Assembly: GCA_015492435.1 (NCBI GenBank)
Contig: WGFB01000051.1
Location: 15,100-79,099 of the forward strand
DNA from: Gammaproteobacteria bacterium
GTDB lineage: Bacteria; Pseudomonadota; Gammaproteobacteria; SZUA-140
Direction: 5' to 3'
Length of the DNA stretch: 64,000 nt
Shown: piece after piece, positions 5,736-34,405 of the stretch
Numbering within the stretch: position 1 is the stretch's first letter
Layout: each line of letters begins with the position of its first letter
Made by a program: the position numbers and the translations under genes
Notes under the pieces: model-generated
Database searches by the model: none
What the model saw: only the letters and a program-made list of their open reading frames with translations
Told to the model about the DNA's origin: nothing

Positions 5736-5809
5736 TGGAGGCTGGGGTCGGAATCGAACCGGCGTCCACGGCTTTGCAGGCCGCTGCATAACCACTCTGC
5801 CACCCAGCC
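5736..5809 (-). tRNA. tRNA-Cys (anticodon GCA)
   Basis: The reverse complement reads GGCTGGGTGGCAGAGTGGTTATGCAGCGGCCTGCAAAGCCGTGGACGCCGGTTCGATTCCGACCCCAGCCTCCA. It has a cloverleaf, anticodon loop CTGCAAA, a GTTCGATTC T-loop and a 3' CCA. Length 74 nt. Confidence 0.93.
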
Positions 5810-5870
5810 TGTATCCAGGCCGTTTCACCCGGTACAACTGTAAATCAGGGAAAACCAAACAATGCGGAAC

Positions 5871-5946
<76 letters not shown>

Positions 5947-6006
5947 TCACCAGGAACTCGATATTCTCTATATGTGGCTCCCGGCTGTCAAGTGTAATCC
6001 AGCGGC

Positions 6007-6552
6007 CTATTTCAGGGAAGGCCATGCCTTTTGCAGGTATATCACCATGGACCACAGGGTGAGTATGGCGGCGGCGTACAGGAAAATGAAGCCCAGTTCC
6101 TCGATGGGAAGGCCAAACAGGGGGTACTGGAAGAGCAGCATGATGAGGGCGGTCAACTGGCAGGTGGTCTTGATCTTGCCCAGCATGTTGACGGCCACCT
6201 TGCTGCCGAGCCCGATCTCCGCCATCCACTCGCGCAGGGCGGACACGGTGATCTCGCGGCCGATGATGACGGCGGCGGGCAGGGCCATCCACGGCGTGGG
6301 GTTGACCTGCACCAGCAGCACCAGCGCCACCACCACCATCAGCTTGTCGGCGACGGGATCCAGGAAGGCGCCGAAGGCGGAGGTCTGCCCCAGCCGGCGC
6401 GCCAGGTAGCCGTCCAGCCAGTCGGTGATGGCCGCCAGGGAGAAGACCAGCGCGCTGGCGATCCGCGCCCAGTCATAGGGCAGGTAGAAAATCAGGACAA
6501 AGACCGGGATCAACCCGATGCGCAGCAGCGTGAGGATGGTCGGTGTCGTCAT
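6007..6552 (-). CDS. pgsA: CDP-diacylglycerol--glycerol-3-phosphate 3-phosphatidyltransferase
   Basis: 181 aa. CDP-alcohol phosphatidyltransferase motif DWLDGYLARRLGQTSAFGAFLDPVADK, multiple TM helices, and the conserved position between uvrC and tRNA-Gly. Confidence 0.93.
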   Translation of the reverse strand: MTTPTILTLLRIGLIPVFVLIFYLPYDWARIASALVFSLAAITDWLDGYLARRLGQTSAFGAFLDPVADKLMVVVALVLLVQVNPTPWMALPAAVIIGREITVSALREWMAEIGLGSKVAVNMLGKIKTTCQLTALIMLLFQYPLFGLPIEELGFIFLYAAAILTLWSMVIYLQKAWPSLK

Positions 6553-6561
6553 GGCGCGGTG

Positions 6562-8373
6562 TCAATTGTTTTCGTGAAAAATATCATAGATGCGCCGGGC
6601 AAGCTCTTTATTTATTCCTGACAAATTTGCAAGGTCATCGATGCCCGCCCGCGACACCCCCTGCAGGCCGCCGAACTGGTCGAGAAGCTTTTTCTTGCGC
6701 CGTGGGCCGATGCCGGGGATGCGGTCCAGCACCGAGGCCTGCTGGGCCTTGCTGCGCCGGTTGCGGTGGCCGCTGATGGCGAAGCGGTGGGCCTCGTCGC
6801 GGACCTGCTGGATGAGGTGCAGGGCCAGGGAATCGGCGGGGAGCGCGATGGCCCCGTCCCGGCCGCCGAGATGCAATTTCTCCAGGCCGGGCTTGCGCCC
6901 CTCCCCCTTGGCGATACCCACCAGGGTCACGCCCTCGATCTGAAGATCCTCCATGACGGCGCCGGCCTGGCGCAACTGCCCCTTGCCGCCGTCGATGAAC
7001 AGCAGGTCGGGCAGCACGCCGTCCCCCTTCTTGATCTTGAGATAGCGGCGCATGAGGGCCTGCCTCATGGCCGCGTAGTCGTCGCCGCCGGTGATGTCCG
7101 TGATATTGAAGCGGCGGTAGGCGGATTTCAGCGGGCCCTCCTGGTCGAAGACCACGCAGGCGGCCACGGTGGATTCCCCACTGGTATGGCTGATGTCGAA
7201 ACACTCCAGGCGCCGCGGCAGTTCTTCCAGCCCCAGCTCCGCATGCAGGGCCTCGAAGCGCTGCTGCATGTTGGCCTTGCTGGACAGGCGCCGGGTGAGG
7301 TTGTGGGCCGCATTGGTGAGGGCCATTTCCATCCAGCGCGCCCGCTCCCCGCGCACCCTGGCATGAATGGCCACCCGCCGCCCGCACTGCCGGGACAGGG
7401 TTTCCTCCAGCAGCTCGCGGTCCTCGGGCATGTGGCTGGCGATGATCCCGGGGATCTGCTCCTGCCCCAGGTAATACTGGGGAATGAAGGCCGACAGGAT
7501 GGCCGTCTCGTCGGCGCCGGGCGGATGGCGGGGAAAGAAGCTGCGGTTGCCCAGGTTGCGCCCGCCGCGGATGAAGAATACCTCGACGATGCCCACGCCG
7601 TTGCGCACCTGGCAGGCGATCACGTCGTGGTCGCCCCTGTCGCTGGTGATGTACTGTTTCTCCTGCACCTTGCGCAGACGCATGATCTGATCGCGGTACT
7701 GGGCCGCCGCCTCGAATTCCAGCCTTTGCGCCGCCTCATCCATGCGCGCCACCAGCTCGTCGATGACCTGGCTGTTGCGCCCCTCCAGGAACATGATGGC
7801 GTGGCGCACGGCCTTGCCATAGGCATCCGCGTCGATTCTGCCCACGCAGGGGGCGCCGCAGCGCTTGATCTGGTACTGCAGGCAGGGGCGCGAGCGGTTG
7901 CGGTAGAAGCTGTCCTCGCACTGGCGCACCTGAAACAGTTTCTGCATCTGGTTGAGGGTGTCGCGCACCGCGCTGGTGCTGGGATAGGGACCGAAATACC
8001 GCCCGGGCTGGCGCCTGGCGCCGCGATGGAAGCCGAGGCGCGGAAAGTCCTGGTCCGTGGAGCAATAGATGTAGGGGTAGCTCTTGTCGTCGCGCAGCAG
8101 GACGTTGTAGCGGGGGCGCAGCGACTTGATGAGGTTGTTCTCCAGCAGCAGGGCCTCGTTCTCCGTATGGGTGACGGTGACCTCGATGGCGGCGATGTGG
8201 GCCACCATGGCGCGGGTCTTGGGCGAGGCGTCGCGGCTGCTGAAATAACTGGCCACGCGGTTCTTCAGGTTGCGCGCCTTGCCCACATAGATGGTCTCCC
8301 CCGCCTCGTTGAGCATGCGGTACACGCCGGGGCGGGCGGGAATCGTCTTGAGCCGGGCCTTGTGGTCAAACAT
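6562..8373 (-). CDS. uvrC: Excinuclease ABC subunit C
   Basis: 603 aa. N-terminal GIY-YIG (GVYRMLNEAGETIYVGKARNLKNRVASYF), UvrBC-interaction region, C-terminal RNaseH-like endonuclease and HhH (GIGPRRKKKLLDQFGGL). Confidence 0.96.
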   Translation of the reverse strand: MFDHKARLKTIPARPGVYRMLNEAGETIYVGKARNLKNRVASYFSSRDASPKTRAMVAHIAAIEVTVTHTENEALLLENNLIKSLRPRYNVLLRDDKSYPYIYCSTDQDFPRLGFHRGARRQPGRYFGPYPSTSAVRDTLNQMQKLFQVRQCEDSFYRNRSRPCLQYQIKRCGAPCVGRIDADAYGKAVRHAIMFLEGRNSQVIDELVARMDEAAQRLEFEAAAQYRDQIMRLRKVQEKQYITSDRGDHDVIACQVRNGVGIVEVFFIRGGRNLGNRSFFPRHPPGADETAILSAFIPQYYLGQEQIPGIIASHMPEDRELLEETLSRQCGRRVAIHARVRGERARWMEMALTNAAHNLTRRLSSKANMQQRFEALHAELGLEELPRRLECFDISHTSGESTVAACVVFDQEGPLKSAYRRFNITDITGGDDYAAMRQALMRRYLKIKKGDGVLPDLLFIDGGKGQLRQAGAVMEDLQIEGVTLVGIAKGEGRKPGLEKLHLGGRDGAIALPADSLALHLIQQVRDEAHRFAISGHRNRRSKAQQASVLDRIPGIGPRRKKKLLDQFGGLQGVSRAGIDDLANLSGINKELARRIYDIFHENN

Positions 8374-9034
8374 GTTCCCGCCCGGCCTCCCGTGCCGTGA
8401 GGCGCCGGCGGATGGTGGCGAAGACCTCGTCGAACATGGCCTCCGTGAGGCGCCGGGTCTGGGTGTTGTAGCGGCTGCAGTGGTAGGAATCCACCAGCAG
8501 GCGGTCCTGGTCGAGGTGGTGTTCCCGGCCGTGGGCGAAGGGATGGTCCTTGAGGCGCAGGCCCAGGGCGCGCAGCACGGCCTGGTGGGCGATGGTCCCC
8601 AGGGCGAGGATCATGGCGCCCTCTCGCAGCCCCGCCAGTTCTTCCCTGAGAAAGCCGTTGCAGGTCCGGATCTCCTCCCCCGTGGGCTTGTTCTGGGGCG
8701 GCAGGCACTTCACCGCATTGGTGATGCGGCAGTCCCGCAGGCGCAGGCCGTCGTGGATGGACTCGGAGACCGCCCGGGTGCTGAAGCCGTGGCGATGAAG
8801 GGTTTCGTAGAGCAGGATGCCGGCAAAGTCACCCGTGAAGGGACGCCCCGTGGCGTTGGCGCCGTGCATGCCCGGCGCGAGGCCGACGATGAGCAGGCCG
8901 GGATCGCTGGCGCCGAAAGGGGCCACGGGCCGGGCATGGTAATCCGGATAATCCCGCCGGACCGCGGACAGGAATGCGCTCAGGCGCGGGCAGCGCCGGC
9001 AGTCCGCATCGAAAATCTTTCCGTTCATTGCCAT
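8366..9034 (-). CDS. Uracil-DNA glycosylase, family 4 (Fe-S type)
   Basis: 222 aa. GLAPGMHGANATGRPFTGDFAGILL motif plus four conserved Cys (CRRC...C...C). Overlaps the uvrC start by 8 nt. Confidence 0.85.
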   Translation of the reverse strand: MAMNGKIFDADCRRCPRLSAFLSAVRRDYPDYHARPVAPFGASDPGLLIVGLAPGMHGANATGRPFTGDFAGILLYETLHRHGFSTRAVSESIHDGLRLRDCRITNAVKCLPPQNKPTGEEIRTCNGFLREELAGLREGAMILALGTIAHQAVLRALGLRLKDHPFAHGREHHLDQDRLLVDSYHCSRYNTQTRRLTEAMFDEVFATIRRRLTAREAGREHV

Positions 9035-9106
9035 TGCGCCGCCCTGGCCATGCCACCTCCCTTGTGCCGCGGTCCCGCGCGAGGAAATGCGGGGCCCGCG
9101 CCAGGA

Positions 9107-9640
9107 TCACCCGATGGGCATGACCACTGTGGCCTGGGGTCCCTCGTCGCCTTCTTCCTCGAAAAAATGCACCGGCATCTGCTCCGCCAGCTTGTCGAAC
9201 TCGTTGTTCTTGACACTGTTGCGGTGAAAATAGATCTCCCGCCCGTCAAAGGTGCTGATGAAGCCATAATTCTCCTCGGGGAAGATGCGGCTGATGGTGC
9301 CCGCCGGCGTCTCCCCGTGAGACTTGACTTCGCCCCGCTGGCGCCGGGTATGGTCCTGAAGCTGGCGCCTGGCCGCCTCGAAGGAGTCCCGGATGGCCAC
9401 ATAGAGATCCTCGTTGGGCTCGCGCTTGACGATGATTTCCCGGCCGGGCACGGTGATATCGATGAGTACATTATAGAGAACCCCCTGCTGACTGTGCCGG
9501 TGCGGGCACTCGACCACCACGCGGCAACTGGTGATCCTGTCATGAAACTGCTCGAGCTTGGCGGCCTTTTCCCTGATGGTGTTTTCCGCCGCCTCCGAGA
9601 GGGACATGTTGCGGGTGGTTATCTGTAATGGCAATTGCAT
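9107..9640 (-). CDS. hpf: Ribosome hibernation promoting factor (HPF/YfiA family) with a C-terminal cold-shock domain (HPF::CSD fusion)
   Basis: The start is taken at ATG 9640 (MQLPLQITTRNMSLSEAAENTIREKAAKLEQFHDRI...), which has the SD AAGGAG upstream. The N-terminal ~95 aa match HPF/YfiA. The C-terminal region GTISRIFPEENYGFISTFDGREIYFHRNSVKNNEFDKLAEQMPVHFFEEEGDEGPQATVV aligns position-by-position with the CspA encoded at 29607 ([61 protein letters not shown]). Confidence 0.8.
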   Translation of the reverse strand: MQLPLQITTRNMSLSEAAENTIREKAAKLEQFHDRITSCRVVVECPHRHSQQGVLYNVLIDITVPGREIIVKREPNEDLYVAIRDSFEAARRQLQDHTRRQRGEVKSHGETPAGTISRIFPEENYGFISTFDGREIYFHRNSVKNNEFDKLAEQMPVHFFEEEGDEGPQATVVMPIG

Positions 9641-9760
9641 AGACGGCTCCTTATGAAATCGGAATGTTGTGCGCGAAACATAAAGTAAATCCTGAAGTAT
9701 GGCGCCGGCCTTCAGGAACTGGGCGCGCCAACCCAATATAGCCTGGATTACACCATAAAA

Positions 9761-11977
9761 TCAATGCATTATGCGCTTCACCTCGATGACGTTGGGTAAT
9801 TGCTCGATGCGCGCCAGGATGCGGCTCAGCTCGGCGATGTTGCCAATTTCCAGGCTCAGGCGCATCTGCGCCAGGTGGCGCTTGTGATCGGAAAAGGTGT
9901 TGGCCGCGATCAGGTTGACCTTGTCGTTGGCCAGCACCGAGGTAATGTCGCGCAGCAGGCCCTGACGGTCGATGGCCGAGATCTGGATGTCCACGGGAAA
10001 GGTTTCCTCGTTGGCGCCGCCCCACTCCACGCTGACAATGCGGTCCGGGCTGCTGTTCATATAGCGCAGCAGATTGCTGCAGTCCGCGCGGTGTATGGAT
10101 ACCCCACGCCCCAGGGTAATGTACCCGCTGATAGCGTCCCCCGGCACCGGCTTGCAGCACCCCGCCATGTGGGACATGAGGTTGCCGATGCCCTGGATGG
10201 TCACGCTGCCACCCTGTCCGTGCCCCGCGGGACGGCGCCGGGTCAGGGGAATGGGCTCCGCGTCGGGCTCCCGGGGCGCGCTCAGATCCAGCGCCGCCTT
10301 CACGAAGCGGGAGGTTTTGACCTCGTTGTGGGCGATGGCCACGTACAGATCCTCGCACTGGGAGAATCCCAGCCTGCCGGCCAGTTTTTCATGATTGACG
10401 CCGCTGATGCCCAGGCGGCGCAGTTCCTTCTCCAGCGCCGTCCTGCCCTCCTGGATGTTCTTGTCGCGGTCCTGCAGACGGAACCAGGCCTGCACCTTGG
10501 ACCGCGCCCGGTTGGTGACGAGATAGCCCAGGTGGGGGTTGAGCCAGTCGCGGCTGGGGGAGGCATTCTTGACCGTCAGCACCTCCACCTTCTGCCCGGT
10601 CTTGAGGCGGTAGGTCAAGGGCACCATCTTGCCGTTCACCTTCACGCCGCGGCAGCGGTGCCCCACCTCCGTGTGGATACGGTAGGCGAAGTCCAGGGGC
10701 GTGGCGCCGCTGGGCAGATCGATGATGTTGCCCTGGGGTGTGAACACATAGATGCGGTCCTGGAAGATCTCGGACTTGAACTGGTCCACGAAGTCACCGG
10801 CATCGCTGATCTCGTCCTTCCATTCCAGCACGTTTCTCAGCCAGGCGATCTTCTTGTCGAAGCTGTCGTCTAGACCGGCGTTCTCCTTGTAACGCCAGTG
10901 GGCGGCCACGCCCAGTTCGTTGCGTTCGTGCATCTCGTGGGTGCGGATCTGGATCTCCACGGTCTTGCCCTCGGGGCCGATGACGGCTGTATGGATGGAC
11001 TGGTAGTTGTTTTCCTTGGGCGTGGCAATGTAGTCGTCGAACTCGCCGGCGATATACTGCCAGTTGGAATGCACCACGCCCAGGGCGGTATAGCAGTCCT
11101 GAATGCTGTCCACCAGCACACGCACCCCGCGGATATCGTAGATCTGGTGATAATCGAGATTCTTGCGCTCCATCTTGCGCCAGATGCTGTAGATATGCTT
11201 GGGGCGGCCGCTGATCTCCGCCTTCACGGAGGCCTTTTCCAGATCGGCGCCCAGGCGCTCGATGAAACGGTTGATGTAGCGCTCGCGGTCGATGCGCCGC
11301 TCGTCCAGCATGCGCGCCAGGCGCTTGTATACCGCCGGTTCCAGGTAGCGCAGGGACAGATCCTCCAGTTCCCACTTGATCTGCCAGATCCCCAGGCGGT
11401 TGGCCAGGGGCGCATAGAGATCCAGGGTCTCCTGGGCGATCCTTCTCTGCTTGTCCCCGGGAAGCGCCGCCAGGGTGCGCATGTTGTGGGTGCGGTCCGC
11501 CAGCTTGATGAGCACCACCCGGATATCCTCCGCCATGGCCAGCAGCATTTTGCGCAGATTTTCCGACTGGACATGTTCCTTCTTGTCGGACTCCGGCAGG
11601 GCCTGGAAGGCCTGGATCATTTTCATTTTGGTCACCCCCTCCACCAGCGAAGCGATATTGGCGCCGAAATTTTCGTGGATATCCCGCAGGGTGCTGGGCG
11701 TGTCCTCCACCACGTCGTGGAGAATGGCGGCCGTGATGGACTCGTGATCGAGTTCCAGTCCGGCCAGGATGTTGGCCACGCCCAGGGCATGCTGGAAATA
11801 GGGCTCGCCAGAGGCCCGGTACTGTCCGGCATGGGCCCGCAGGGCATAGTCGCAGGCCTTGCGGATGAGAGCCATTTCGGTTTCGCCATAGGACTTCGCC
11901 AGGGACGCGAGCCACAAGCCGCTGTCCAGCCGGTCCTTGCTGGTGCGGGGCGTGCTTTTCTCCTTGATGCTGACCAT
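9761..11977 (-). CDS. relA: RelA/SpoT-family (p)ppGpp synthetase; RelA-like length with an apparently intact HD hydrolase motif
   Basis: 738 aa. HD domain (HALGVANIL...LHDVVEDT), synthetase core (RPKHIYSIWRKMERKNL...NNYQSIHTAVIGPEGKTVEIQIRT), and TGS and ACT regions. The length and the synthetase segment are closest to E. coli RelA, while the N-terminus resembles SpoT/bifunctional Rel. Confidence 0.9.
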   Translation of the reverse strand: MVSIKEKSTPRTSKDRLDSGLWLASLAKSYGETEMALIRKACDYALRAHAGQYRASGEPYFQHALGVANILAGLELDHESITAAILHDVVEDTPSTLRDIHENFGANIASLVEGVTKMKMIQAFQALPESDKKEHVQSENLRKMLLAMAEDIRVVLIKLADRTHNMRTLAALPGDKQRRIAQETLDLYAPLANRLGIWQIKWELEDLSLRYLEPAVYKRLARMLDERRIDRERYINRFIERLGADLEKASVKAEISGRPKHIYSIWRKMERKNLDYHQIYDIRGVRVLVDSIQDCYTALGVVHSNWQYIAGEFDDYIATPKENNYQSIHTAVIGPEGKTVEIQIRTHEMHERNELGVAAHWRYKENAGLDDSFDKKIAWLRNVLEWKDEISDAGDFVDQFKSEIFQDRIYVFTPQGNIIDLPSGATPLDFAYRIHTEVGHRCRGVKVNGKMVPLTYRLKTGQKVEVLTVKNASPSRDWLNPHLGYLVTNRARSKVQAWFRLQDRDKNIQEGRTALEKELRRLGISGVNHEKLAGRLGFSQCEDLYVAIAHNEVKTSRFVKAALDLSAPREPDAEPIPLTRRRPAGHGQGGSVTIQGIGNLMSHMAGCCKPVPGDAISGYITLGRGVSIHRADCSNLLRYMNSSPDRIVSVEWGGANEETFPVDIQISAIDRQGLLRDITSVLANDKVNLIAANTFSDHKRHLAQMRLSLEIGNIAELSRILARIEQLPNVIEVKRIMH

Positions 11978-12112: not shown

Positions 12113-12568
12113 CTACCGGCGCCCCTGCCTCATGGCATGAATGACCTGGTCTTCCAGCTCGATGCGGTCGGCAAGGCATTCACCGAGCAGGGAAAGATCG
12201 GTTTTCAGGCCAACGAGGTCGGGCTCCTGGCCATCGAAGTCGTATTTCTCATTGAAGTCGAGGATCTTCTGCGTCGTCGCCACGATGCTGGGATAAACCT
12301 TGTCCGCCACCGCAACCACCTCGTGGCGCCGTTCCTTCTTCTCGTCGATGTAACGGTAAAGCCTGAAATGGGCGTCTGCGGTGTAATCGATGAGCGCCTG
12401 GCAGAAGTTCTCCAGCATCTCGATCACTTCCCGTGAGTCTCCATTCGCGTGATTGGCGGCAAGATCGCCGTACAGGGACAGCACGTTGCTCCTGACGTTG
12501 ACCAGTTCCTGTATCAGGTTCAACGATGCCGAACGGCGCTCCTGAAAAACGTTTTCTGTTCCAGACAT
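12113..12568 (-). CDS. rsd: Rsd/AlgQ-family regulator of sigma D (anti-sigma-70)
   Basis: 151 aa; FCQALIDYTADAHFRLYRYI matches the Rsd/AlgQ signature (E. coli Rsd has FCQSLVDYLSAGHFSIYERI). Confidence 0.8.
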   Translation of the reverse strand: MSGTENVFQERRSASLNLIQELVNVRSNVLSLYGDLAANHANGDSREVIEMLENFCQALIDYTADAHFRLYRYIDEKKERRHEVVAVADKVYPSIVATTQKILDFNEKYDFDGQEPDLVGLKTDLSLLGECLADRIELEDQVIHAMRQGRR

Positions 12569-12901: not shown

Positions 12902-13945
12902 TCAATAGGTCGCAATCTCCACGGGATCGAAGCGGCGCCCCTGCTGGCGCGCGTGGTTCACCTTGTGTTCCAGGCGCTCGATGATCGCGCGGCAGAAATT
13001 GACGCCCGTGAGATCCTGGGCGGTGTTGAGCCCGCCCGGCGAGAACACGTTGATCTCCACCAGCTTGTCGCCCACGATATCCAGTCCCACCAGAAACATG
13101 CCATCCCGCACGAGGCGCGGGCGAACGGCCTCGGCGATCTCCAGCATGTCATCGGTGATCCGGGCCTTCCGCGCCTTGCCGCCCACCGTCATGTTGCTGC
13201 GGATATCCTCTCCAGGGCGCATCCTGCGTATGGCGGCGTACTCGCCACCGATGCGCAGCGGCCTGCCGTTGACAATGAACAGACGGGTGTCCCCGTGCTC
13301 GATGGCGGGCAGAAACTCCTGGGCGATGACATAGCCCTCGTGGCTGATGGCCTCGATCATCTGGTGAAGGTTGGGCGCATCCAGGGGGCGCAGGAGAAAC
13401 ACATTGCGCCCTCCCGACCCCGCCAGGGGTTTCAGCACGATGGTTCCGCCCATGGCCTTCTGAAAGGCGATAATTTCATCGTGGTCGCGGGTGATGAGCG
13501 CCGCGGGCCTGATGTGGCGGGGAAAGGCCAGGCAATACATTTTGTTGATCCCGCGCGCCAGGCTGTCGGGGTTGTTGAGGGTGATGACGCCGTGGCCCAT
13601 GGCCAGCCGCCCGAAATTGATGCCCGCCAGGCGCGCCCAGGGGCGGTCGATGATATCCTGGGCGGGATCGTTGCGCAGCATCAGGACATCGAGTTCATCC
13701 ACGGTGATCATGACCGGCGCGACCTCTTCCCGCATGATCTCAAGAAAGCGCGCCGCGCTGCGGTGCCTCCCGGATGGCGCCACAAAGGCCCTGGCGCGCA
13801 CGGAGTCATCGGAACATATCTCGAAGTCGGCCACATTGATATAACAGGTTTCATGGCCGAGGTTATTGGCTTCCATGGCCAGGCAGGTGGTGGTATAGGC
13901 GGCGTATTCGGTGCGCAGGTCATTGATGACGAAACCGATCTTCAC
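12902..13945 (-). CDS. Glutathione-synthetase-like ATP-grasp ligase (GshB homolog)
   Basis: 347 aa. Co-linear similarity to E. coli GshB blocks: VLMLRNDP vs VILMRKDPP; LKPLAGSGGRNVF vs LKPLDGMGGASIF; AQEFLPAIEHGDTRLFIVNGRP vs AQNYLPAIKDGDKRVLVVDGEP; FLVGLDIVGDKLVEINVFSP vs IFVGLDIIGDRLTEINVTSP. Its start overlaps the upstream gene's stop as ATGA. Confidence 0.8.
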   Translation of the reverse strand: MKIGFVINDLRTEYAAYTTTCLAMEANNLGHETCYINVADFEICSDDSVRARAFVAPSGRHRSAARFLEIMREEVAPVMITVDELDVLMLRNDPAQDIIDRPWARLAGINFGRLAMGHGVITLNNPDSLARGINKMYCLAFPRHIRPAALITRDHDEIIAFQKAMGGTIVLKPLAGSGGRNVFLLRPLDAPNLHQMIEAISHEGYVIAQEFLPAIEHGDTRLFIVNGRPLRIGGEYAAIRRMRPGEDIRSNMTVGGKARKARITDDMLEIAEAVRPRLVRDGMFLVGLDIVGDKLVEINVFSPGGLNTAQDLTGVNFCRAIIERLEHKVNHARQQGRRFDPVEIATY

Positions 13946-15849
13946 GGCGCCAGGCCCTCGGTCAGGGCCGCCAGGTCGAGCCCCGCGCGCAGGCGCGCCA
14001 GTCTTTCCCGGCAGGATTTCAGCGTCAGGAAGCGCGGCCGCAGCAGGGGCGGACGGACAATGCGGCGCCAGCGCAATTCTTCGATGAATGGCGCCTGTTG
14101 CAGGGCGAACTTCCCGGTCAATAAAACATCCATGTCCCCGCCCCGGCCAAAATAGGACAGCAGGTCGATGAGCCCACGCAGATAGACCACGTCCTTGGTA
14201 AGCCCGCCCCCGCGGTAGACGCGCATGGTGATGTAGTAGGCCTGGTACTGGCTGAACTCGTGGTCATGATGCAAGGCCCGGAATGTTTCGATGAAATCGG
14301 CGCCGGTGACCAGATGATGCACCGCGACAACCCGCGCGGCCAGGGTGCGCAGGCGGGAGCGGTTCAGGCCGCCCACCAGGTATTCCGCCAGCACCGCCAG
14401 GCCTTCCTGGGTCTCGTCATAGGCGGCCAGGCCCACGTGCAACTGACGCAGCGGCTGCACCAGCCCATTGTAGTAGGTGACGAGATGCACCCCCACTTCA
14501 TGCTGCAGGGATGCATCCACCCTCCCCTCGCCCACCTTGACGTCCGTTCCCACCAGGAAATGTCCCTGGGAGACGATGAGCCCGCTGATGTCGTCGCGGA
14601 TCCGCACTGTCGCCGCCAGGCCGGGATCGGTCTTCCGGTAGTATGCCAGTTCCTTTCTGGCCAGCCTCGCGAATTTCCCGGCATCGAGGGCGCGGGACTG
14701 CCTGTCGTCGTGAGTATGGGGGGGCACCTTTTCAAGAATCCCGCGCGCCGCCTTCAGCAGGGCCTTGTCGGCCACGCCGAATACTTGCATGCTGCCGTAG
14801 AGAAATTCCGCCTTGCCACGCGCATCCAGCATCGAAACCTTGCGGTCGAGCTCGCGGCGCTTTTCCTCGAACAACAGGGCCAGGGTGGGATCTTCGATGG
14901 CGTCCAGGGGAATGTTGTAGAGGGCGCGCTTGACCAGGCCCGGATCCACCGTTCGCGGCCGGTAGTGAAACTCGGGAATGACCGCAAAGCGCCCGCGCCG
15001 GAACTGGCGCCAGGCGCTGGCCACGTTGACCGGCGTCGCCTGGAGTATGAGATCGAACTGCTCGTCGATGGCGGCCAGGCGGCGGTCCGTCTCATGCACG
15101 GCGCGGGTCATGGCGTGGCGGCCCAGTTCGTGATAGTGAACGGGCTTGTGGCGGCTGTACTGGCGCGCAAACTCATGGAAGCTCTGTTTCAGGGCCCGCC
15201 CCACTCCCTGGCGCACCGCGCGCAGGGCGTAGGGGAGGCGCGCGCCGGTCTCCCTGTCGTGGTAAACAGGCGCGACCTCCAGACCGAGCAAGGTGCCGCC
15301 CGCGGATCTGAGGCGGGCGGCCGAGAGCAGCGGCTTCATGCCGGGTGGCGCGCAGCGCTGGACGTAATCCACCGTCACACGGGCGCAGCAACGGCGCAGG
15401 CGCACCCTGCGCAAGGCCTGATCCAGGCGTTCAATGACGGGCATGGGCGCATTGTGCCTGGGGGCGAGAACGCGAAAGGCCGGCGCGGGGGCCCTGCCGT
15501 CCCGCTCCCCTTCCGCCACGAGGCCGGGATTCGCCCATATCTCGACGATGAGAAAGGCGCCACAGGCCCTGGATTGCAGGGCGGCGATTTCCTCGACCAG
15601 GCGCGACACATCGCGCTGCGCGCCTGGATCCCCGCTGGCGAGAAGATAGGCGGCCTCGCCGGTCAGCAGGCTTTCCGTCTCCGGGTCGTCCACCCCGGGA
15701 GGGCGGCGGTAGACGCACAGAAAAGGCAGGTGCCGGTCGATATGCGCCCGGCCGCCACCCGGCAGCCTGCGCCTGACCGCGCTGCCGGCCTTCACGAAGC
15801 GGATAATATCTTCGATGACTGTTGCGGCGCGCTCCCGTGGCTTGTTCAT
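13942..15849 (-). CDS. QEGLA-motif protein (DUF1704, family name recalled from memory) with an HExxH(x23)E motif; possibly a zinc peptidase
   Basis: Contains ...LQHEVGVHLVTYYNGLVQPLRQLHVGLAAYDETQEGLAVLAEYLVGG. The start is taken at ATG 15849 (MNKPRERAATV, 635 aa), because the track start at 15999 would overlap the divergent uspA. The ~250-aa N-terminal region has no recognised domain. Confidence 0.7.
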   Translation of the reverse strand: MNKPRERAATVIEDIIRFVKAGSAVRRRLPGGGRAHIDRHLPFLCVYRRPPGVDDPETESLLTGEAAYLLASGDPGAQRDVSRLVEEIAALQSRACGAFLIVEIWANPGLVAEGERDGRAPAPAFRVLAPRHNAPMPVIERLDQALRRVRLRRCCARVTVDYVQRCAPPGMKPLLSAARLRSAGGTLLGLEVAPVYHDRETGARLPYALRAVRQGVGRALKQSFHEFARQYSRHKPVHYHELGRHAMTRAVHETDRRLAAIDEQFDLILQATPVNVASAWRQFRRGRFAVIPEFHYRPRTVDPGLVKRALYNIPLDAIEDPTLALLFEEKRRELDRKVSMLDARGKAEFLYGSMQVFGVADKALLKAARGILEKVPPHTHDDRQSRALDAGKFARLARKELAYYRKTDPGLAATVRIRDDISGLIVSQGHFLVGTDVKVGEGRVDASLQHEVGVHLVTYYNGLVQPLRQLHVGLAAYDETQEGLAVLAEYLVGGLNRSRLRTLAARVVAVHHLVTGADFIETFRALHHDHEFSQYQAYYITMRVYRGGGLTKDVVYLRGLIDLLSYFGRGGDMDVLLTGKFALQQAPFIEELRWRRIVRPPLLRPRFLTLKSCRERLARLRAGLDLAALTEGLAP

Positions 15850-15914
15850 GGAACTTCCATTGCTGCTATACTTTCCCGAAGCCCCTTGGCGTCTGAATGA
15901 TGGAGGATCCTTCC

Positions 15915-16361
15915 ATGCCAGATTACAACCATATCCTAGCCGCTGTCGACTTTTCCGCCGCGGCGGAGGCCATCGGCAAGCGCGCCCTGGATCTGTCAAG
16001 ACGCTATGACTGCCAGGTGACCCTGATCCATGTGGTCGACTACCTGCTTCCCCTTGGCTACGCTGACGACTTCACCCCCTCCCCGGTCCTGATGATCGAC
16101 GAAAACGAACTGCTGGAGCAGAGTCAGCGGTCCCTGCAGACCTTTGCCGAAAAGACGGGACTGGAGGGCGCCCGCCGGCAGGTGCTGCCGGGTTCTCCGC
16201 GCCAGGAGATCATACGCTATGCCCGTGAACACGGGGCGGACCTCATCGTCATCGGCTCCCATGGCCGGCATGGACTGGACCGCCTGCTGGGATCCACCGC
16301 CAGGAGCATTCTCAACGATGCCCCGTGTGACGTGCTGGCGGTGCGCATCAAGGAAGCGTGA
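15915..16361 (+). CDS. uspA: Universal stress protein UspA family
   Basis: MPDYNHILAAVDFS...ADLIVIGSHGRHGLDRLLGSTARSILNDAPCDVLAV. Start at ATG 15915 with GGAGGA 8 nt upstream. Confidence 0.85.
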   Translation: MPDYNHILAAVDFSAAAEAIGKRALDLSRRYDCQVTLIHVVDYLLPLGYADDFTPSPVLMIDENELLEQSQRSLQTFAEKTGLEGARRQVLPGSPRQEIIRYAREHGADLIVIGSHGRHGLDRLLGSTARSILNDAPCDVLAVRIKEA

Positions 16362-17088: not shown

Positions 17089-17938
17089 CCAGCAGGCACC
17101 CGCACCCCAGGCCTTCCAGATCGCGCAGCAGCGATTCACCGTATTCCATGAGGCCGGGCCTGCCGCCGATGAACAGCCCGCAGCCCTGCTCCGCGAGCAT
17201 GCGCGCCAGGCAGCCGCAGGTGCTCTCCCGCAGGCGGTGAATGCGGCAGGGGATGCCCTGCGCCCCCAGATATTCCTCGATATGCGCCCTTGCCCGGCGT
17301 TCCTCCGCCTCCTCCATCGGCGGCAGGACAATCGTCATGGGCAGGCTGCCTTCCTGAAAACAAGACGTTGCCAGGCGCAACGCCCGCCAGGCCGCGGGGG
17401 TGCCGTCGAAGTAGACCGTGAGCGCGCGGGGGGCGTGTCCGGCGTCACGTTGCAGGAGCACCGTGGAAGTGGTCTGACGCAGGATCCTCCACAGAACACC
17501 CTCCTCCCTCGTGCTGGAGACCAGTGATTCCCGGACACGGTCCAGGATCAGCAGATCCTCCCCCACGACGCTGGCCAGCACTTCCCGGGAGACATGCCCG
17601 CGCCGCACCTGGAAGGACCAGGGCACCTTGTGCCGGGCGGCGAGCGCCGACAGTTTTTCGCGCACGGCATTCGCCTGTGCCTTGAGCACCCTTTCCATGC
17701 GCTCCCTGTCCAGGGGGCGGATCTCTCCCAACCCATAAGACATCTCCCCAGCGCGCGGCAGGGCGGCCAGGCGCAACAGGTTGATGTCCTCGATGAAGAG
17801 GACATGCATTTCGGCCTTGAGACGCAGGGCGATCTCCACCGTGCCTTGCATCTTTTCCAGATTGCCCGCGGGGGGGCTGAGCACGATGACGACGCGGCGG
17901 ATGTCCGACGCCTGCTCAGGCGTGATGATGTTCATCAT
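17081..17938 (-). CDS. Tandem universal-stress-protein (USP) domain protein
   Basis: Two degenerate USP-like halves; the C-terminus GCGLFIGGRPGLMEYGESLLRDLEGLGCGCLLVN resembles the USP G-x2-G-x9-G-S tail. The start is taken at MMNIIT (17938) and is uncertain; it overlaps the upstream Lon-like gene's 3' end by about 20 nt. Confidence 0.5.
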   Translation of the reverse strand: MMNIITPEQASDIRRVVIVLSPPAGNLEKMQGTVEIALRLKAEMHVLFIEDINLLRLAALPRAGEMSYGLGEIRPLDRERMERVLKAQANAVREKLSALAARHKVPWSFQVRRGHVSREVLASVVGEDLLILDRVRESLVSSTREEGVLWRILRQTTSTVLLQRDAGHAPRALTVYFDGTPAAWRALRLATSCFQEGSLPMTIVLPPMEEAEERRARAHIEEYLGAQGIPCRIHRLRESTCGCLARMLAEQGCGLFIGGRPGLMEYGESLLRDLEGLGCGCLLVN

Positions 17939-20351
17939 GTTCACCAGCCATCTTGCTGTATTCCATGCGTATTTCTGCCAATTTCCGCACGCGCGCCAGC
18001 ACCCTCTGGTTGACACTGCCCTCGGGATAGCATCCTTCCGCATCCGGCGTCCCGGCCTCGACGCCAGTCAACAGGGTGATGGCCTCGTCGATGGTGGAGA
18101 CGGGATAGATGGCGAAGTCACCGGCCTCGACGGCCGCGACGACATCGCGGCGCAGCATGAGATGGGCTGAATTGGCGCGGGGTATCAGGACGCCCTGAAA
18201 CCTGGCGGCCCCCTGTAATCTGCATACATCGAAAAAGCCCTCTATTTTCTCGTTGACCCCGCCGATGGCCTGCACCTGGCCATGCTGGTTGATGGAGCCG
18301 GTCACCGCCAGCCATTGGCGCAGGGGCACATCGGCGAGAGACGACAACAAGGCGCACAGCTCGGCCACCGAGGCGCTGTCCCCCTCGATCTGGCCATAGG
18401 ATTGCTCGAACACCAGGCTGGCGGACAGGGACAGGGGCTGCTCGCGCGCGTAGCGCGCGGCGAGGAAGGAGGACAGGATCAGCACCCCCTTTGAGTGAAT
18501 GGCGCCGCCCAGTTCCACTTCCCGTTCGATGTCGATCACCTCTCCCTCCCCCAGGCGGGTATTGGCCGTGATGCGCGTGGGCTGCCCAAAGGAGAAATCG
18601 CCCAGATCCATGACGGAGAGGCCGTTCACCTGGCCAACGCGCTCCCCCGCGGTGTCGATGAGCACGATGCCACGCCGGATGTTCTCGTAGACCCTGTCAC
18701 GCACCCGGTCCGTGCGCCGGATACGGGCCGCGATGGCTCTTTCAACATCTTCATGCTCGATCGCCTCGTGGTCATGGCCGCGCGCCCAGTAGTCGGCCTC
18801 GCACAGCAGATTGCCGATATCCAGCAGATGGGTCGACAGCTTTTCCGCGTCGCCGGCGGCGCGGGCGCTGTATTCGATGATGCGCGCCACGGCATGGCGC
18901 GTAACAGGCAGCAGGCCGTCGCGGCGCGCCAGCGTGGCGATGAGGCGGGCATAGAGCATGTGGTTCTCGCTGCTGCGACCGATGTCCTCCTCGAAATCGG
19001 CGCACACCTTGAACAGTTCGTCGAACTCGTCGTCGTAGGCCATCAGCAGGTAATACAACATGCGGTCGCCGATGAGCACCACCTTGAGATCCATGTCCAC
19101 CTGCTCGGGTTCCAGGGACAGCGTGCTCACCAGACTGTAGAGTTCGCCCGGCGACTGTATGCGGATCCTGCCCGCCTTGAGTATGCGCTTGAGTCCTTCC
19201 CAGGCCAGGGGTTGCATGAGCACCTTGTTGGCGTCCAGGATGAGGTATCCGCCATTGGCCCGATGCAGGGCGCCCGCCTTGATGAGGGTGAAATCCGTGA
19301 CCAGGGCGCCCATCTGGGAAAGATGCTCCACGCGCCCCACCAGGTTCTGGTAACTGGGGTGGTCCTCGTAAACCACCGGCGCGCCGTGATTGCCGCCGTG
19401 GTCCACCAGTACGTTGACTTCATAGCGCCGGAAGCTTCCGCTTCCGGCGGAAACGAAATCGAAAGGCTGGGGAGGCGCCTCCTCCTGGCGGCGGAACTCG
19501 TCAAGGTGCTCCATGATATCCGCCCGCACCGCGTCCAGGTGGCTTGCCACCCGCGGAAGTTCCTGATACTTCGTCTTCAGTTCGTCAATGAGATTGCCCA
19601 CCGCGTACCGGCCTATCTCTTGATCCAGCCTGCGGACCTCCTCCCGCGCCTCGCGCTGCCACTGCGGCGTCTTGAGCATGATGCTGCCCAGTTTCTCCTG
19701 CAACGCCGCCACCGCCTGCTCGATACGCTGCTTCTCCTCGTCGGACAATTTTTCGTATTCCTCGGGCTTGATGACCTCCTTGTCTTTCTCCGGGGCGAAG
19801 GCGAACCCCGCCGGTGTGCGAATGAGCGCGATCCCCTGCTGCTCCCCCTCCCTGGCCAGATCCGCCAGGGCCCGTTCACGGCGCTCCTTGAACCTGCCTT
19901 CTATCTCGCGCACGCGGGCGTGATATTCCTCCGTCTCGAAGGCGAGGGGGATGGAGGCCCGCAGGTCGTCCACGAGACGCGCCATGTCGGCGCGCAGGCG
20001 CTGCCCCACTCCAGGTGGCAGGCGCATGGCGCGGGGACGCGCGGGTTGTTCGAAATTGTTGACATAGCAGAGATCATCGGGCGTTTCGGCCCGCGCCGCC
20101 ATCTGTTCCAGATACTGGCGCACCACGGTGTATTTCCCGATACCGGAAGGGCCGAGGACGAAGAGATTGTAGCCTCCGCGGCGGATACCCACACCGAAAC
20201 GCAGGGCTTCCAGCGCGCGTTCCTGGCCGATGATCCCGTCGAGGTCCTCCAGCTCTTCTGTGGTGCTGAAATGGAACTGCTGCGGATCGCATGTGCGATA
20301 CAATGCGTCGGGTGGGAGCGGCGATACCGGGGCCGGGAGTGATTCTTCCAT
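17916..20351 (-). CDS. Lon-like ATP-dependent protease, YcbZ (LonH-like) family: AAA+ ATPase plus S16 proteolytic domain
   Basis: 811 aa. Walker A GPSGIGKYT. The C-terminal region is highly similar to E. coli YcbZ (ELGGAIHSKGVLILSSFL..., SLVFEQSYGQIEGDSASVAELCALLSSLADVP..., GGVNEKIEGFF), including the catalytic Ser of the Lon protease domain. Confidence 0.85.
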   Translation of the reverse strand: MEESLPAPVSPLPPDALYRTCDPQQFHFSTTEELEDLDGIIGQERALEALRFGVGIRRGGYNLFVLGPSGIGKYTVVRQYLEQMAARAETPDDLCYVNNFEQPARPRAMRLPPGVGQRLRADMARLVDDLRASIPLAFETEEYHARVREIEGRFKERRERALADLAREGEQQGIALIRTPAGFAFAPEKDKEVIKPEEYEKLSDEEKQRIEQAVAALQEKLGSIMLKTPQWQREAREEVRRLDQEIGRYAVGNLIDELKTKYQELPRVASHLDAVRADIMEHLDEFRRQEEAPPQPFDFVSAGSGSFRRYEVNVLVDHGGNHGAPVVYEDHPSYQNLVGRVEHLSQMGALVTDFTLIKAGALHRANGGYLILDANKVLMQPLAWEGLKRILKAGRIRIQSPGELYSLVSTLSLEPEQVDMDLKVVLIGDRMLYYLLMAYDDEFDELFKVCADFEEDIGRSSENHMLYARLIATLARRDGLLPVTRHAVARIIEYSARAAGDAEKLSTHLLDIGNLLCEADYWARGHDHEAIEHEDVERAIAARIRRTDRVRDRVYENIRRGIVLIDTAGERVGQVNGLSVMDLGDFSFGQPTRITANTRLGEGEVIDIEREVELGGAIHSKGVLILSSFLAARYAREQPLSLSASLVFEQSYGQIEGDSASVAELCALLSSLADVPLRQWLAVTGSINQHGQVQAIGGVNEKIEGFFDVCRLQGAARFQGVLIPRANSAHLMLRRDVVAAVEAGDFAIYPVSTIDEAITLLTGVEAGTPDAEGCYPEGSVNQRVLARVRKLAEIRMEYSKMAGEHDEHHHA

Positions 20352-21121: not shown

Positions 21122-22552
21122 TTACCCTTTGATACAGATCAACGGCTCCAGGCGAGCCACCTTGCGCGCCAGCCCCGCGTGGTCGGTACTGTCCACCACC
21201 TGATCCACGTCCTTGTACGCCAGGGGGGCCTCCTCGGCGATACCGCGCAGGCTGTGGCCGCGGATGACGATGCCGCGCCGCCCCAGTTCCTCAACGATGT
21301 CCCGGCCGCGCCAGCGTTTCTTGGCCGCGCTGCGGCTCATGGCGCGGCCCGCGCCGTGGCAGGCGGAACTGAAGGCATGGTGGGCGCTCTCCCGGGTTCC
21401 CGCCAGAATGTGGGAACTGGTCCCCATGGAACCCCCCACCAGTACCGGCTGCCCCACTTCGCGGAATGCCGCCGGCAACGCCTCGTGTCCCGGTCCCAGG
21501 GCCCGCGTCGCGCCCTTGCGGTGCACGAACAGGCGGCGTTCCCTGCCATCCACGATGTGTGTCTCCTCCTTGCAGGTATTGTGAGAGACATCGTAGAAGA
21601 GTGGCAGCGTGATGCCGGGAATGACCTCTTGCGCGGCCTGGCGCGCCAGGTGGGTGATGATCTGGCGATTGGCCAGGGCGCAGTTGATGGCGGCGCGCAT
21701 GGCGCCCAGGTAGTCCCGGCCCAGGTCCGAGCGAATGGGGGCGCAGGCCAGCTCCCGGTCCGGCAGTTCGATGCCAAAACCCGGCGCCGCGAGCACCATG
21801 CGCTTGAGGAACTCCATGCCGATCTGGTGCCCCAGGCCCCGTGAACCGCAGTGTATGCTGATGAGCACGTCGTCTTCCTGGATGCCGTAGCGGTGCGCGA
21901 TGTCTTCATCGAAGATCTCCGCCACGCGCTGCACCTCCAGATAGTGATTGCCCGAACCCAGCGTCCCCATCTCGTCCTGCTGGCGCTTGCGGGCATGCTG
22001 CGAAACCTTGGCGGGATCAGCGCCGGGCATTCTACCCCGCTCCTCCACGCGCTCCAGGTCGGCCTCGTTGCCATAGCCCTGCGCCACCGCCCACTGCGCG
22101 CCCCCGGCGAGCATCTCGTCCATCTGGCGGGCGTTCAGGTGGATATGGCCCGTGCTCCCGAGACCGGCGGGGATGGCATGATACAGGGCCGTCGCCAGGG
22201 CTTCCCGCCTTCCCTCAAGATCATGGGTCTTGAGTCCCGTATACAGGGCTCTCACCCCACAGGAGATGTCGAAACCCACCCCGCCCGCCGAGATGACGCC
22301 ACCCTCCGCCTCATCGAAGGCCGCCACGCCGCCGATGGGAAAGCCGTAGCCCCAATGGGCATCGGGCATGGCATAGGAGGCCTTGACGATGCCCGGCAGG
22401 GTAGCGACATTCATGGCCTGTTCCGCCACCTTGTCGTCCAGGCCGCGTATAAGGTCCTCGTCGCCATAGAGGATGGCCGGGACGCGCATTCTGCCCGTGG
22501 CCGGAATCTGCCATTCGCTGGCGGAGGGTCTTGTGAAGCGGGCGATATCCAT
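21122..22552 (-). CDS. rtcB: RNA-splicing ligase RtcB (3'-phosphate/5'-OH RNA ligase)
   Basis: Conserved RtcB blocks: DAHWGYGFPIGGVAAFD, GSGNHYLEVQ, HCGSRGLGHQIG, FVHRKGATRA, SACHGAGR. The start is taken at ATG 22552 (MDIARFTRPS). The track's N-terminal extension (TLVSCTLYLVTCTL) is a translation of the heptamer repeat. Confidence 0.93.
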   Translation of the reverse strand: MDIARFTRPSASEWQIPATGRMRVPAILYGDEDLIRGLDDKVAEQAMNVATLPGIVKASYAMPDAHWGYGFPIGGVAAFDEAEGGVISAGGVGFDISCGVRALYTGLKTHDLEGRREALATALYHAIPAGLGSTGHIHLNARQMDEMLAGGAQWAVAQGYGNEADLERVEERGRMPGADPAKVSQHARKRQQDEMGTLGSGNHYLEVQRVAEIFDEDIAHRYGIQEDDVLISIHCGSRGLGHQIGMEFLKRMVLAAPGFGIELPDRELACAPIRSDLGRDYLGAMRAAINCALANRQIITHLARQAAQEVIPGITLPLFYDVSHNTCKEETHIVDGRERRLFVHRKGATRALGPGHEALPAAFREVGQPVLVGGSMGTSSHILAGTRESAHHAFSSACHGAGRAMSRSAAKKRWRGRDIVEELGRRGIVIRGHSLRGIAEEAPLAYKDVDQVVDSTDHAGLARKVARLEPLICIKG

Positions 22553-22556
22553 AGAT

Positions 22557-22605
22557 GCAAGGGTACAAGTTACAAGGTACAAGGTACAAGATACAAGGGT
22601 ACAAG
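22557..22605. repeat. Heptamer array, copy c (7 tandem GTACAAG-type units), in the archease-rtcB intergenic spacer
   Basis: GCAAGGGTACAAGTTACAAGGTACAAGGTACAAGATACAAGGGTACAAG lies immediately 5' of the rtcB ATG inside a co-directional operon. The unit length of 7 is not a multiple of 3, so it is non-coding. Confidence 0.75.
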
Positions 22606-22655
22606 CTTGGGCTTCGCGGTGTTCAGGCCTGCGGTTCGGGGGTGAGACAGACTCG

Positions 22656-23108
22656 TCATACGTCCACCACGCATTGCGCGACCCACGTGCCCTGCTTGTC
22701 ACGACAGACTTTCAATTCGGTGAAGGTGGCGCCCTTGATCTCGACGGCGGGATGATGTTTCGCGGCATCGATGGGCTCGCCCCATGCCTCTCCCTGCAGG
22801 CCATCACCGGTAAAGGTCACGGAGAACCGGGAAAAGAGCATCTTGCGGGTGGCCATTTCATAGATCAGGGCGTTGATCCAGTCCAGGAGGAGGATCTCGC
22901 TGTCGTCGCCCGCGCATTCGATTCCGATGCGCTCACGGGGAGAGACGTCGGCCACACCGGTGATCACCGCCGTCAGGCCAAGGGCCGCCTGGACAAAGGC
23001 CTCTTCCAGGGTGCCCGCCAGGCCGCGTATCCCGATATCCGATTCATGGGAGAAGTGTTCCCAGCGGGGAGTGATCTTCGTGGTGGCGCCCATGCCCATG
23101 GAGGACAA
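22656..23108 (-). CDS. Archease (RtcB activator)
   Basis: PRWEHFSHESDIGIRGLAGTLEEAFVQAALGLTAVITG is the canonical archease N-terminal signature. The exact start codon is uncertain among the N-terminal Met codons. Confidence 0.9.
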   Translation of the reverse strand: MSSMGMGATTKITPRWEHFSHESDIGIRGLAGTLEEAFVQAALGLTAVITGVADVSPRERIGIECAGDDSEILLLDWINALIYEMATRKMLFSRFSVTFTGDGLQGEAWGEPIDAAKHHPAVEIKGATFTELKVCRDKQGTWVAQCVVDV

Positions 23109-23141
23109 TACTACCGGCTGGTGGGGTGGTGTTCAAACGGC

Positions 23142-23855
23142 TCAGGGCAGATATAGGGAAAAGCGCGCTCCGCCCTGCCCATCCCGGTTGGCGAGACGGA
23201 TATGACCCGCGCGGCCATCGCGGCGGTGCATGGCGGCGATGGCGCGGGAGAAATACAAACCGAGGCCGGTGTTGCCACTGGCGAAACTGACACCCGCTCC
23301 AGCGGCGGCCGCGTTTTCCAGCATGTGCCCGGGATAGCCCGGGCCGTCGTCCTGCACGGTGATCACCAGGCAGCCATCTTCACATCGCGCCTCGAGCGTC
23401 AGTTGCCGGCGCGCATGGCGGATGGCATTGTTGATGGCATTGCCCAGGACGCCCGTGACCAGTTCCCGGTCGAATACCCAGACGAGATCCTCCCCGCACA
23501 GCAGCTCTCCTTCGATATCCCTGCTCTCCAGAAGCGGGGTTTCCTGCAACAGCAGTTCCAACAGTACGTCGTGGACATTCCACTCGGCCAGGTTCGCGCT
23601 GAGCATGGCCTTGTCCATGCGATAGAAGCTGAGAAGCTGGATCATCTTGCCGTTGAGGCGCTTTGCCTCGACCTGCAACTGTCCAAGGCGCTGGTGGCCA
23701 CCCGCCTCCATATCGGGAATGCATGCCTCCAGGGAATCGAGGACGATGGTCAGGGAGTTCTTCATGTCATGGAGGGTCGAGGCGATGAGACTGCCGAAGT
23801 CAGCGCGGCCTTCGTCCGCACCTTTTTCCCCAGGCATGGATTTCTCAGGCAGCAT
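23142..23855 (-). CDS. Soluble histidine kinase (HisKA + HATPase_c, no sensor or TM domain)
   Basis: H-box STLHDMKNSL; N-box GNAINNAIRHA; G-boxes DDGPGYP and GNTGLGLYFSR. 237 aa; overlaps the upstream response-regulator gene by 11 nt. Confidence 0.85.
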   Translation of the reverse strand: MLPEKSMPGEKGADEGRADFGSLIASTLHDMKNSLTIVLDSLEACIPDMEAGGHQRLGQLQVEAKRLNGKMIQLLSFYRMDKAMLSANLAEWNVHDVLLELLLQETPLLESRDIEGELLCGEDLVWVFDRELVTGVLGNAINNAIRHARRQLTLEARCEDGCLVITVQDDGPGYPGHMLENAAAAGAGVSFASGNTGLGLYFSRAIAAMHRRDGRAGHIRLANRDGQGGARFSLYLP

Positions 23856-34355: not shown

Positions 34356-34390
34356 AGAAAGAGCCCCGCTCATGGCGGGGCTCTTTTGGG
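34356..34390. terminator. Bidirectional rho-independent terminator between convergent msrAB and the second csp gene
   Basis: AAGAGCCCCGC-TCATG-GCGGGGCTCTT, followed by TTTTGGG on the plus strand and TTTCTTTCCC on the minus strand. Confidence 0.7.
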
Positions 34391-34405
34391 CCGCGATCGC
34401 TTATT

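Follow-up and report, generated by a model that had tools for sequence, protein, structure and literature searches.

A protein with the HPFcold architecture, an HPF/RaiA domain joined to a cold-shock domain, in a free-living Chromatiales-like gammaproteobacterium

A hibernation promoting factor (HPF) with a cold-shock domain (CSD) at its C-terminus was named HPFcold and solved on the Coxiella burnetii ribosome by Stuart et al. (Nat Commun 2026;17:7049; PMC13392368; preprint November 2025). In this structure, the N-terminal domain fills the 30S decoding centre together with the mRNA path. The CSD lies within the mRNA exit channel, where it binds the anti-Shine–Dalgarno 3′ end of 16S rRNA, with bS21 pincering it and uS7 in contact with it. 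The linker between the domains has six residues. The named contacts are stacking of U1534 on Y142, stacking of C1535 on F132 together with a pseudo-pair to R123, insertion of K155 (KLEVG motif) into helix 40 of 16S rRNA, and a salt bridge from R177 to the G924-925/C1530 backbone that joins two backbone segments. An insertion in the beta2-beta3 loop is present in the HPFcold protein, CBU_0020, and absent from the short HPF of the same species, CBU_0745. The protein was seen on monomeric 70S and 30S particles and was called a 70S hibernation factor. The authors argued that it guards a 16S 3′ end sensitive to RNases in a species that has no RMF, RaiA, or long HPF (PMC13392368). It was also suggested to substitute for the cold-shock proteins (Csps) that Coxiella has lost. 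The gene cbu0020 is induced 10.5-fold at the transition to the stationary-phase small-cell variant (PMC4766238).

Chan et al. catalogued the same class as Csp-HPF, next to SigE-HPF and CBS-HPF chimeras, when they surveyed pan-genomes for hibernation factors (bioRxiv 10.1101/2025.11.04.686544). The chimeras were described there as long HPFs in which a lost C-terminal domain has been replaced. They are scattered over bacteria, vary in genomic location, are sometimes plasmid-borne, coexist with canonical HPF, and often adjoin Balon (bioRxiv 10.1101/2025.11.04.686544). CBS domains are found in Hib and Dri, hibernation factors of archaea, as well as in the CBS-HPF chimeras.

Two further systems serve for comparison. 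Long HPFs (Staphylococcus aureus and Lactococcus lactis; PDB 5ND8 and 5MYJ) combine a homologous decoding-site N-terminal domain, a flexible linker, and a second domain, PF16321, which makes 100S particles. In Escherichia coli, short HPF/RaiA/YfiA consists of the homologous N-terminal domain, and RMF is a separate protein. RMF and the RaiA tail are said, in work of Polikanov et al. from 2012, to act at or near the anti-Shine–Dalgarno or mRNA channel region.

The locus described here lies in a 64-kb window, by which we mean the whole stretch of DNA that was analysed, from a free-living, high-GC (62%) Chromatiales-like gammaproteobacterium. The gene, which we call hpf-cold, is complete and occupies positions 9107..9640 on the minus strand, with 177 codons and a TGA stop. 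On translation it forms a single open reading frame from the ATG at 9640 to the TGA at 9109..9107, with no internal stops or frameshifts. A Shine–Dalgarno sequence, AAGGAG, can be read at 9652..9647 (minus strand), 6 nt 5′ of the ATG; the single-gene reading of the first-pass annotation thus holds. A TTG start that would extend the frame to 209 residues was rejected: every aligned homolog starts at the same Met (MQLPLQ or MKLPLQ), and the 177-residue reading is therefore correct. The identical 177-residue protein is encoded as one gene on 10 public contigs from several assemblies, including NCBI GCA_027008545.1, so that this exact protein was already present in public data.

Domain content was assessed with Pfam and NCBIfam models. 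The N-terminal half is an HPF/RaiA domain, as had been proposed: Ribosomal_S30AE (PF02482, also labelled 'sigma-54 modulation') matched residues 5-101 (9338..9628, minus strand) with E 2.7e-17 and 63.7 bits against a cut-off of 23.7, and the yfiA/HPF model TIGR00741 scored 44 bits, above its cut-off. The C-terminal segment, read earlier as a bona fide cold-shock domain, scored well above noise for CSD (PF00313) on residues 114-174 (9119..9301, minus strand), with E 2.7e-10 and 40.4 bits against a cut-off of 27. Pfam detected no third family at E <= 1, and in particular no match to PF16321 (Ribosom_S30AE_C); the long-HPF C-terminal domain is thus absent, and a CSD stands in its place. In a sequence search of the PDB, long HPFs aligned to residues 6-112 only. 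The protein is accordingly not a standard long HPF, just as the first reading had held.

The two domains are joined by the linker RGEVKSHGETP (residues 102-112; 9305..9337, minus strand). In homolog alignments of 25 and 50 sequences, G103 and K106 of the linker were invariant and H108 nearly so. The N-terminal domain carries the beta2-beta3 loop insertion, PHRHSQQG (residues 46-53), and this insertion is conserved among the homologs.

An AlphaFold2 model built from the 50-sequence alignment had a mean pLDDT of 83.5. It comprised an N-terminal beta-alpha-beta-beta-beta-alpha fold and a C-terminal five-stranded barrel with one disordered stretch between them, and pLDDT fell below 50 solely at residues 104-109, the flexible core of the linker. 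The pTM was 0.53, and the mutual orientation of the two domains is therefore not predicted. Each domain was compared separately by Foldseek with a PDB copy running up to 2026-04-08 and lacking 9T0Z. The N-terminal half matched HPF/RaiA/pY chains (target TM-scores 0.83-0.90), and the C-terminal half matched CspA/B/C/E structures (target TM-scores 0.84-0.88, rmsd 1.5-1.7 A), so that both folds are recovered domain by domain.

Comparison with the solved protein showed homology over the full length. With phmmer, chain 9 of PDB 9T0Z/9TZE (183 aa, titled 'Ribosome hibernation promoting factor') matched residues 1-171 with E 9.8e-47. BLASTP against C. burnetii CBU_0020 (UniProt Q83FC0) gave 48% identity over 170 residues without a gap (E 1e-56), the linker region included. 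A 98-residue short HPF (9sda_9) aligned with a 6-residue gap at residues 51-56, where CBU_0020 aligned without one. The protein thus shares with HPFcold (CBU_0020; L. pneumophila Q5ZW81) the order S30AE, short linker, CSD, and with the C. burnetii protein a similar size (177 vs 183 residues) and the beta2-beta3 insertion.

Contact residues were taken from Supplementary Figures 3 and 4 of PMC13392368 and transferred through the gapless BLASTP alignment. As the alignment has no gaps and a constant offset of five, the Coxiella contacts map to Y137, F127, R118, K150, and V172. Four of four residues were kept among Y142, F132, R123, and K155 (here Y137, F127, R118, and K150). In the family alignments of 25 and 50 sequences, F127 and Y137 were invariant, Y125 and H139 were nearly invariant, and position 118 was mostly basic. 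The fifth contact differs: R177 of Coxiella corresponds to V172 here, and arginine is likewise missing at this position from most family members. The KLEVG motif reads KLAEQ in our protein, with K150-L151 kept, and the full motif is not conserved across the wider family. Since neither feature is conserved more widely, both look specific to Coxiella and Legionella, and alignment suggests that they are probably lineage-specific rather than defining features of HPFcold.

We regard membership of the window protein in the HPFcold family as practically certain. It is an ordinary ortholog of a known kind of protein, HPFcold having been described in 2025-2026 and solved by cryo-EM on ribosomes of Coxiella (PMC13392368). 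The novelty implied by the first-pass annotation consequently falls away: the HPF–CSD architecture is not new, having been named, structurally solved, and surveyed phylogenetically, including as chimeras in bioRxiv 10.1101/2025.11.04.686544. As a discovery, the fusion carries little weight. The match is of use for annotation: such genes mostly carry names like 'HPF/RaiA family' or 'ribosomal subunit interface protein' and are better read as HPFcold, a 70S-type factor that would protect the anti-Shine–Dalgarno end.

By analogy with the Coxiella protein, it is likely that the HPFcold mechanism also applies here. The N-terminal HPF/RaiA domain would enter the 30S decoding centre, fill the mRNA and tRNA path, and block A-site tRNA and translation. 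The short conserved linker would run along the mRNA path and place the CSD at the mRNA exit channel, between bS21 and uS7, where its aromatic and basic RNP face, with R118, F127, Y137, and K150 of the KL motif as predicted contacts, would wrap the single-stranded anti-Shine–Dalgarno 3′ end of 16S rRNA. The outcome would be a silenced monomeric 70S ribosome (or 30S subunit) with its exposed 16S 3′ end shielded from RNases. This would be the same job as that of RMF or of the long-HPF dimerisation domain, which work through 100S formation; compared with the separate short HPF and RMF of E. coli, one polypeptide would do both jobs. Against the transfer count the identity to the solved protein, which is only 48%, the absence of R177 and of the full KLEVG motif, and the differing C-terminal tail. 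The 16S rRNA 3′ end of this organism lies outside the 64-kb window. The RNA anchoring that had been offered as one role for the CSD would agree with the structure of the ortholog, in which the domain holds the anti-Shine–Dalgarno 3′ end of 16S rRNA (PMC13392368).

Alternatively, the CSD, tethered to the ribosome, might work in the conventional manner of a Csp, chaperoning RNA or binding mRNA, for example by holding or melting mRNA 5′ regions or by selecting mRNAs on exit from hibernation, and would then not protect the 16S 3′ end. Such a role would suit the retained Csp fold, the largely retained aromatic RNP face, the ability of CSDs to bind single-stranded sequences of many kinds, and the absence of Coxiella R177. 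The linker of ~11 residues limits the CSD to the mRNA exit side, however, where the anti-Shine–Dalgarno sequence is the resident single strand (PMC13392368), and the residues that are conserved are those contacting that sequence. Two high-scoring stand-alone Csps are moreover already present for chaperone work. Given so short a linker, and a conserved surface that contacts the anti-Shine–Dalgarno sequence, we judge a tethered chaperone to be unlikely.

The first-pass annotation had also offered another explanation, namely that the CSD takes the place of the long-HPF domain, serving for dimerisation or as a cold-triggered module, and leads to 100S particles by a new route. This would fit the position of the CSD, which stands where long HPF has its dimerisation domain, and the account of the chimeras as long HPFs with a replaced C-terminal domain (bioRxiv 10.1101/2025.11.04.686544). 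Yet the only solved example has its CSD on rRNA within one ribosome, on monomeric 70S or 30S particles (PMC13392368), which speaks against both a different mode of dimerisation and a cold- or stress-specific route to 100S. The best-conserved residues, among them the invariant F127 and Y137, lie on the anti-Shine–Dalgarno face and not on a protein-protein surface. A cold trigger sits poorly with the response of the Coxiella gene, which is induced in stationary phase and not specifically by cold (PMC4766238), and with the cspA-type thermosensor in the window, which lies 5′ of a stand-alone csp gene and has no equivalent 5′ of hpf-cold. We therefore consider 100S formation through the CSD very improbable, and retain protection of the 16S 3′ end on a monomeric ribosome as the preferred reading.

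An artefactual origin of the fusion, with a short hpf and a csp gene merged through faulty assembly or sequencing or through a recent frameshift, can be dismissed, given a continuous frame, an identical protein on 10 independent contigs, 120 of 120 listed homologs fused at similar length, at least 596 genomes with a relative, and an experimental structure of a fused protein.

The distribution of the family was assessed by a search of 5.8 billion proteins, which gave 4249 matches. The architecture search thus bore out the co-occurrence of the two domains: both PF02482 and PF00313 were found in each of the 120 matches listed, which measured 175-244 residues (mostly 175-183) and shared 53-91% identity with the query. 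Their source labels included 'ribosomal subunit interface protein', 'HPF/RaiA family ribosome-associated protein', and 'cold shock CspA family protein/ribosome-associated translation inhibitor RaiA'. With one genome taken per species, the scan found a relative in at least 596 species-representative genomes. The closest among the genomes listed (67-69% identity) came from MAGs of uncultured Chromatiaceae, Chromatiales, and Gammaproteobacteria. More distant relatives occurred in Nitrospirota, Zetaproteobacteria, Binatia, Thermodesulfobacteriota, Brocadia, Planctomycetia, Gemmatimonadota, alphaproteobacteria, and one cyanobacterium. The HPF–CSD fusion is a stable, widespread family.

A small number of large plasmids or secondary replicons likewise encode full-length homologs (Sinorhizobium fredii, Azospirillum oryzae, and Methylocella tundrae). 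The Csp-HPF chimeras of Chan et al. belong to the same class, an HPF that has a Csp domain and lacks the dimerisation domain, and the pattern of their survey, with scattered phyla, variable location, and occasional plasmids, was reproduced here. The window itself carries uvrC, relA/spoT, a pgsA-like gene, and tRNA genes; it is therefore chromosomal, and a plasmid origin was rejected. Separately, replicons of Azospirillum, Burkholderia, Ideonella, and Aquicella gave matches to the N-terminal part only (query ~1 to 100-117, 41-52% identity; e.g., NZ_CP059451.1 384188-384532). Such proteins may be relatives that lack a CSD, or may carry some other domain fused at the C-terminus.

The window was also searched for other hibernation factors. 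When the E. coli RMF, HPF, and RaiA sequences and the N-terminal domain were compared with the 64-kb window by tblastn, the hpf-cold gene alone was found, with 33% identity to E. coli HPF; no rmf-like frame and no second S30AE gene was detected in the window. Pfam detected no Balon-like or eRF1-like protein among the 30 other open reading frames. The frequent Balon adjacency and coexistence with canonical HPF noted in the survey are thus not seen within the 64-kb window.

Two stand-alone csp genes with Pfam CSD matches are present in the window, as first noted, at 29607..29810 (plus strand) and 34609..34406 (minus strand). They scored 105-110 bits on the CSD model, compared with 40 bits for the fused domain. 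An earlier claim that the fused CSD aligns residue-for-residue with these proteins was slightly overstated: the sequences are readily alignable (E 3e-13 and 3e-12) and the GPQAT tail is common to the fused CSD and the first csp (29607..29810), but identity was 38% and 32%, with one 1-residue gap. The protein and the CspA family have in common the five-stranded OB fold, this level of identity, and the GPQAT tail. CspA-family proteins are single domains of ~70 residues with canonical RNP1 and RNP2 motifs, whereas the hpf-cold protein has 177 residues, two domains, and divergent motifs: RNP1 is ENYGFI (vs KGFGFI) and RNP2 is IYFHR (vs VFVHF). Every NCBIfam Csp equivalog model scored far under its cut-off on the protein. 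Its length, second domain, motifs, and equivalog scores rule it out as an ordinary member of the CspA family.

One of the stand-alone genes also differs from hpf-cold in its RNA context. The cspA thermoregulator RF01766 was detected at 34356..34740 (minus strand; 87.1 bits, gathering score 78), where it spans the 5′ UTR and coding sequence of the csp gene at 34609..34406. The csp gene at 29607..29810 (plus strand) had no Rfam match at the gathering threshold. Coxiella has lost its stand-alone Csps, whereas this free-living organism keeps them, and the physiological setting of HPFcold may therefore differ between the two. Since classical Csps coexist with it here, HPFcold is not merely a substitute for lost ones. 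This coexistence, with one of the Csps under a cspA RNA thermosensor, is a minor local addition to what is known of the family.

The genes around hpf-cold lie on the same, minus strand. Directly upstream is relA/spoT of the bifunctional type (HD, RelA_SpoT, TGS, and ACT domains; 11977..9761), preceded by rsd/algQ, encoding a sigma-70 regulator (12568..12113). Downstream follow a UDG-superfamily gene (9034..8366), uvrC (8373..6562), a CDP-alcohol phosphatidyltransferase gene (pgsA-like, ~6000..6560), and two tRNA genes (5739..5946). The succession of uvrC, the pgsA-like gene, and tRNAs presumably resembles the enterobacterial uvrC-pgsA-tRNA arrangement. The order rsd-relA/spoT-hpfcold-udg-uvrC is unlike the Coxiella neighbourhood.

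We clustered all neighbours over 80 genome loci, and no universal neighbour of hpf-cold emerged from these. The order rsd-relA/spoT-hpfcold-udg-uvrC was kept down to relatives of ~62-78% identity (loci L001-L004 and L081-L087) and not beyond. relA adjoined hpf-cold in five of the 80 genome loci, and the gene order was lost in the other 76. The most frequent real neighbour families within 4 kb (loci L001-L080) were CBS-pair proteins (13/80), Usp-like proteins (7/80), and Hsp20-like proteins (7/80). The first of these is of note, as CBS domains occur in Hib, Dri, and the CBS-HPF chimeras. A widely conserved functional neighbourhood was rejected, the relA/udg/uvrC synteny being confined to the closest relatives.

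Adjacency to rsd and relA/spoT is thus a lineage-specific synteny. It fits a role in growth arrest and is at most suggestive of growth-arrest regulation; expression in stationary phase or under the stringent response would be in keeping with it and with the Coxiella ortholog. The position of hpf-cold directly after these genes offers a testable hint of stringent-response coupling. Taken further, HPFcold in this lineage might be a dedicated stringent or stationary-phase arm rather than a Csp substitute, in which a co-inherited and perhaps co-transcribed rsd-relA/spoT-hpfcold block couples (p)ppGpp synthesis, sigma-70 sequestration, and ribosome silencing, and in which the tail, without the R177 bridge, may anchor differently on the 30S platform. 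We put this forward as a doubtful extension of the HPFcold mechanism.

The 120-bp spacer 5′ of hpf-cold was inspected for regulatory elements. A sigma-70-like promoter candidate, TTGATT-18 nt-TATATT, lies at 9735..9764 (minus strand) and overlaps the relA/spoT stop; it is a consensus match only, and a weak one, with one site found against a mean of 0.4 in shuffled sequences. Between relA/spoT and hpf-cold, a hairpin can be read from the sequence at 9691..9716 (minus strand; CCTGAAG-N12-CTTCAGG, followed by a T-rich run). This candidate could be a relA/spoT terminator or a 5′-UTR stem. The spacer was not conserved in two of the related loci (L003 and L004), and the 5′ region of hpf-cold folded no better than shuffled sequence (z = 0.47). 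Upstream of hpf-cold, no Rfam family was found at the gathering threshold, and a permissive Rfam scan of 9000..9900 returned only a sub-threshold CsrC match on the opposite strand, inside relA. On these results, a regulatory RNA upstream of hpf-cold was rejected.

Several other genes in the window deserve mention. A CsrA-like frame of 73 residues (55689..55910, minus strand) matched Pfam CsrA on residues 39-64 only (profile positions 22-47); its N-terminus, MLVLTRRAGESIQIY, looks CsrA-like and is followed by an insertion of ~20 residues, and the protein may be an RsmN-like CsrA variant. At 12902..15999 (minus strand), a MATCAP/DUF1704-family gene (294 bits) lies directly upstream of a glutathione-synthetase/RimK-type ATP-grasp gene, with a 4-nt overlap. 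This pairing of a carboxypeptidase-like with a ligase-like protein suggests a system for adding and removing a peptide tail. An RtcB RNA ligase gene (564 bits) adjoins an archease gene at 21122..25482 (minus strand), downstream of genes for a small HATPase_c protein and a response-regulator/TPR protein; together, these may form a regulated RNA-repair module. A LonB/LonC-like AAA protease (AAA_32, LonC_helical, and Lon_C; 17916..20351, minus strand) is encoded a few kb from the stress-gene cluster.
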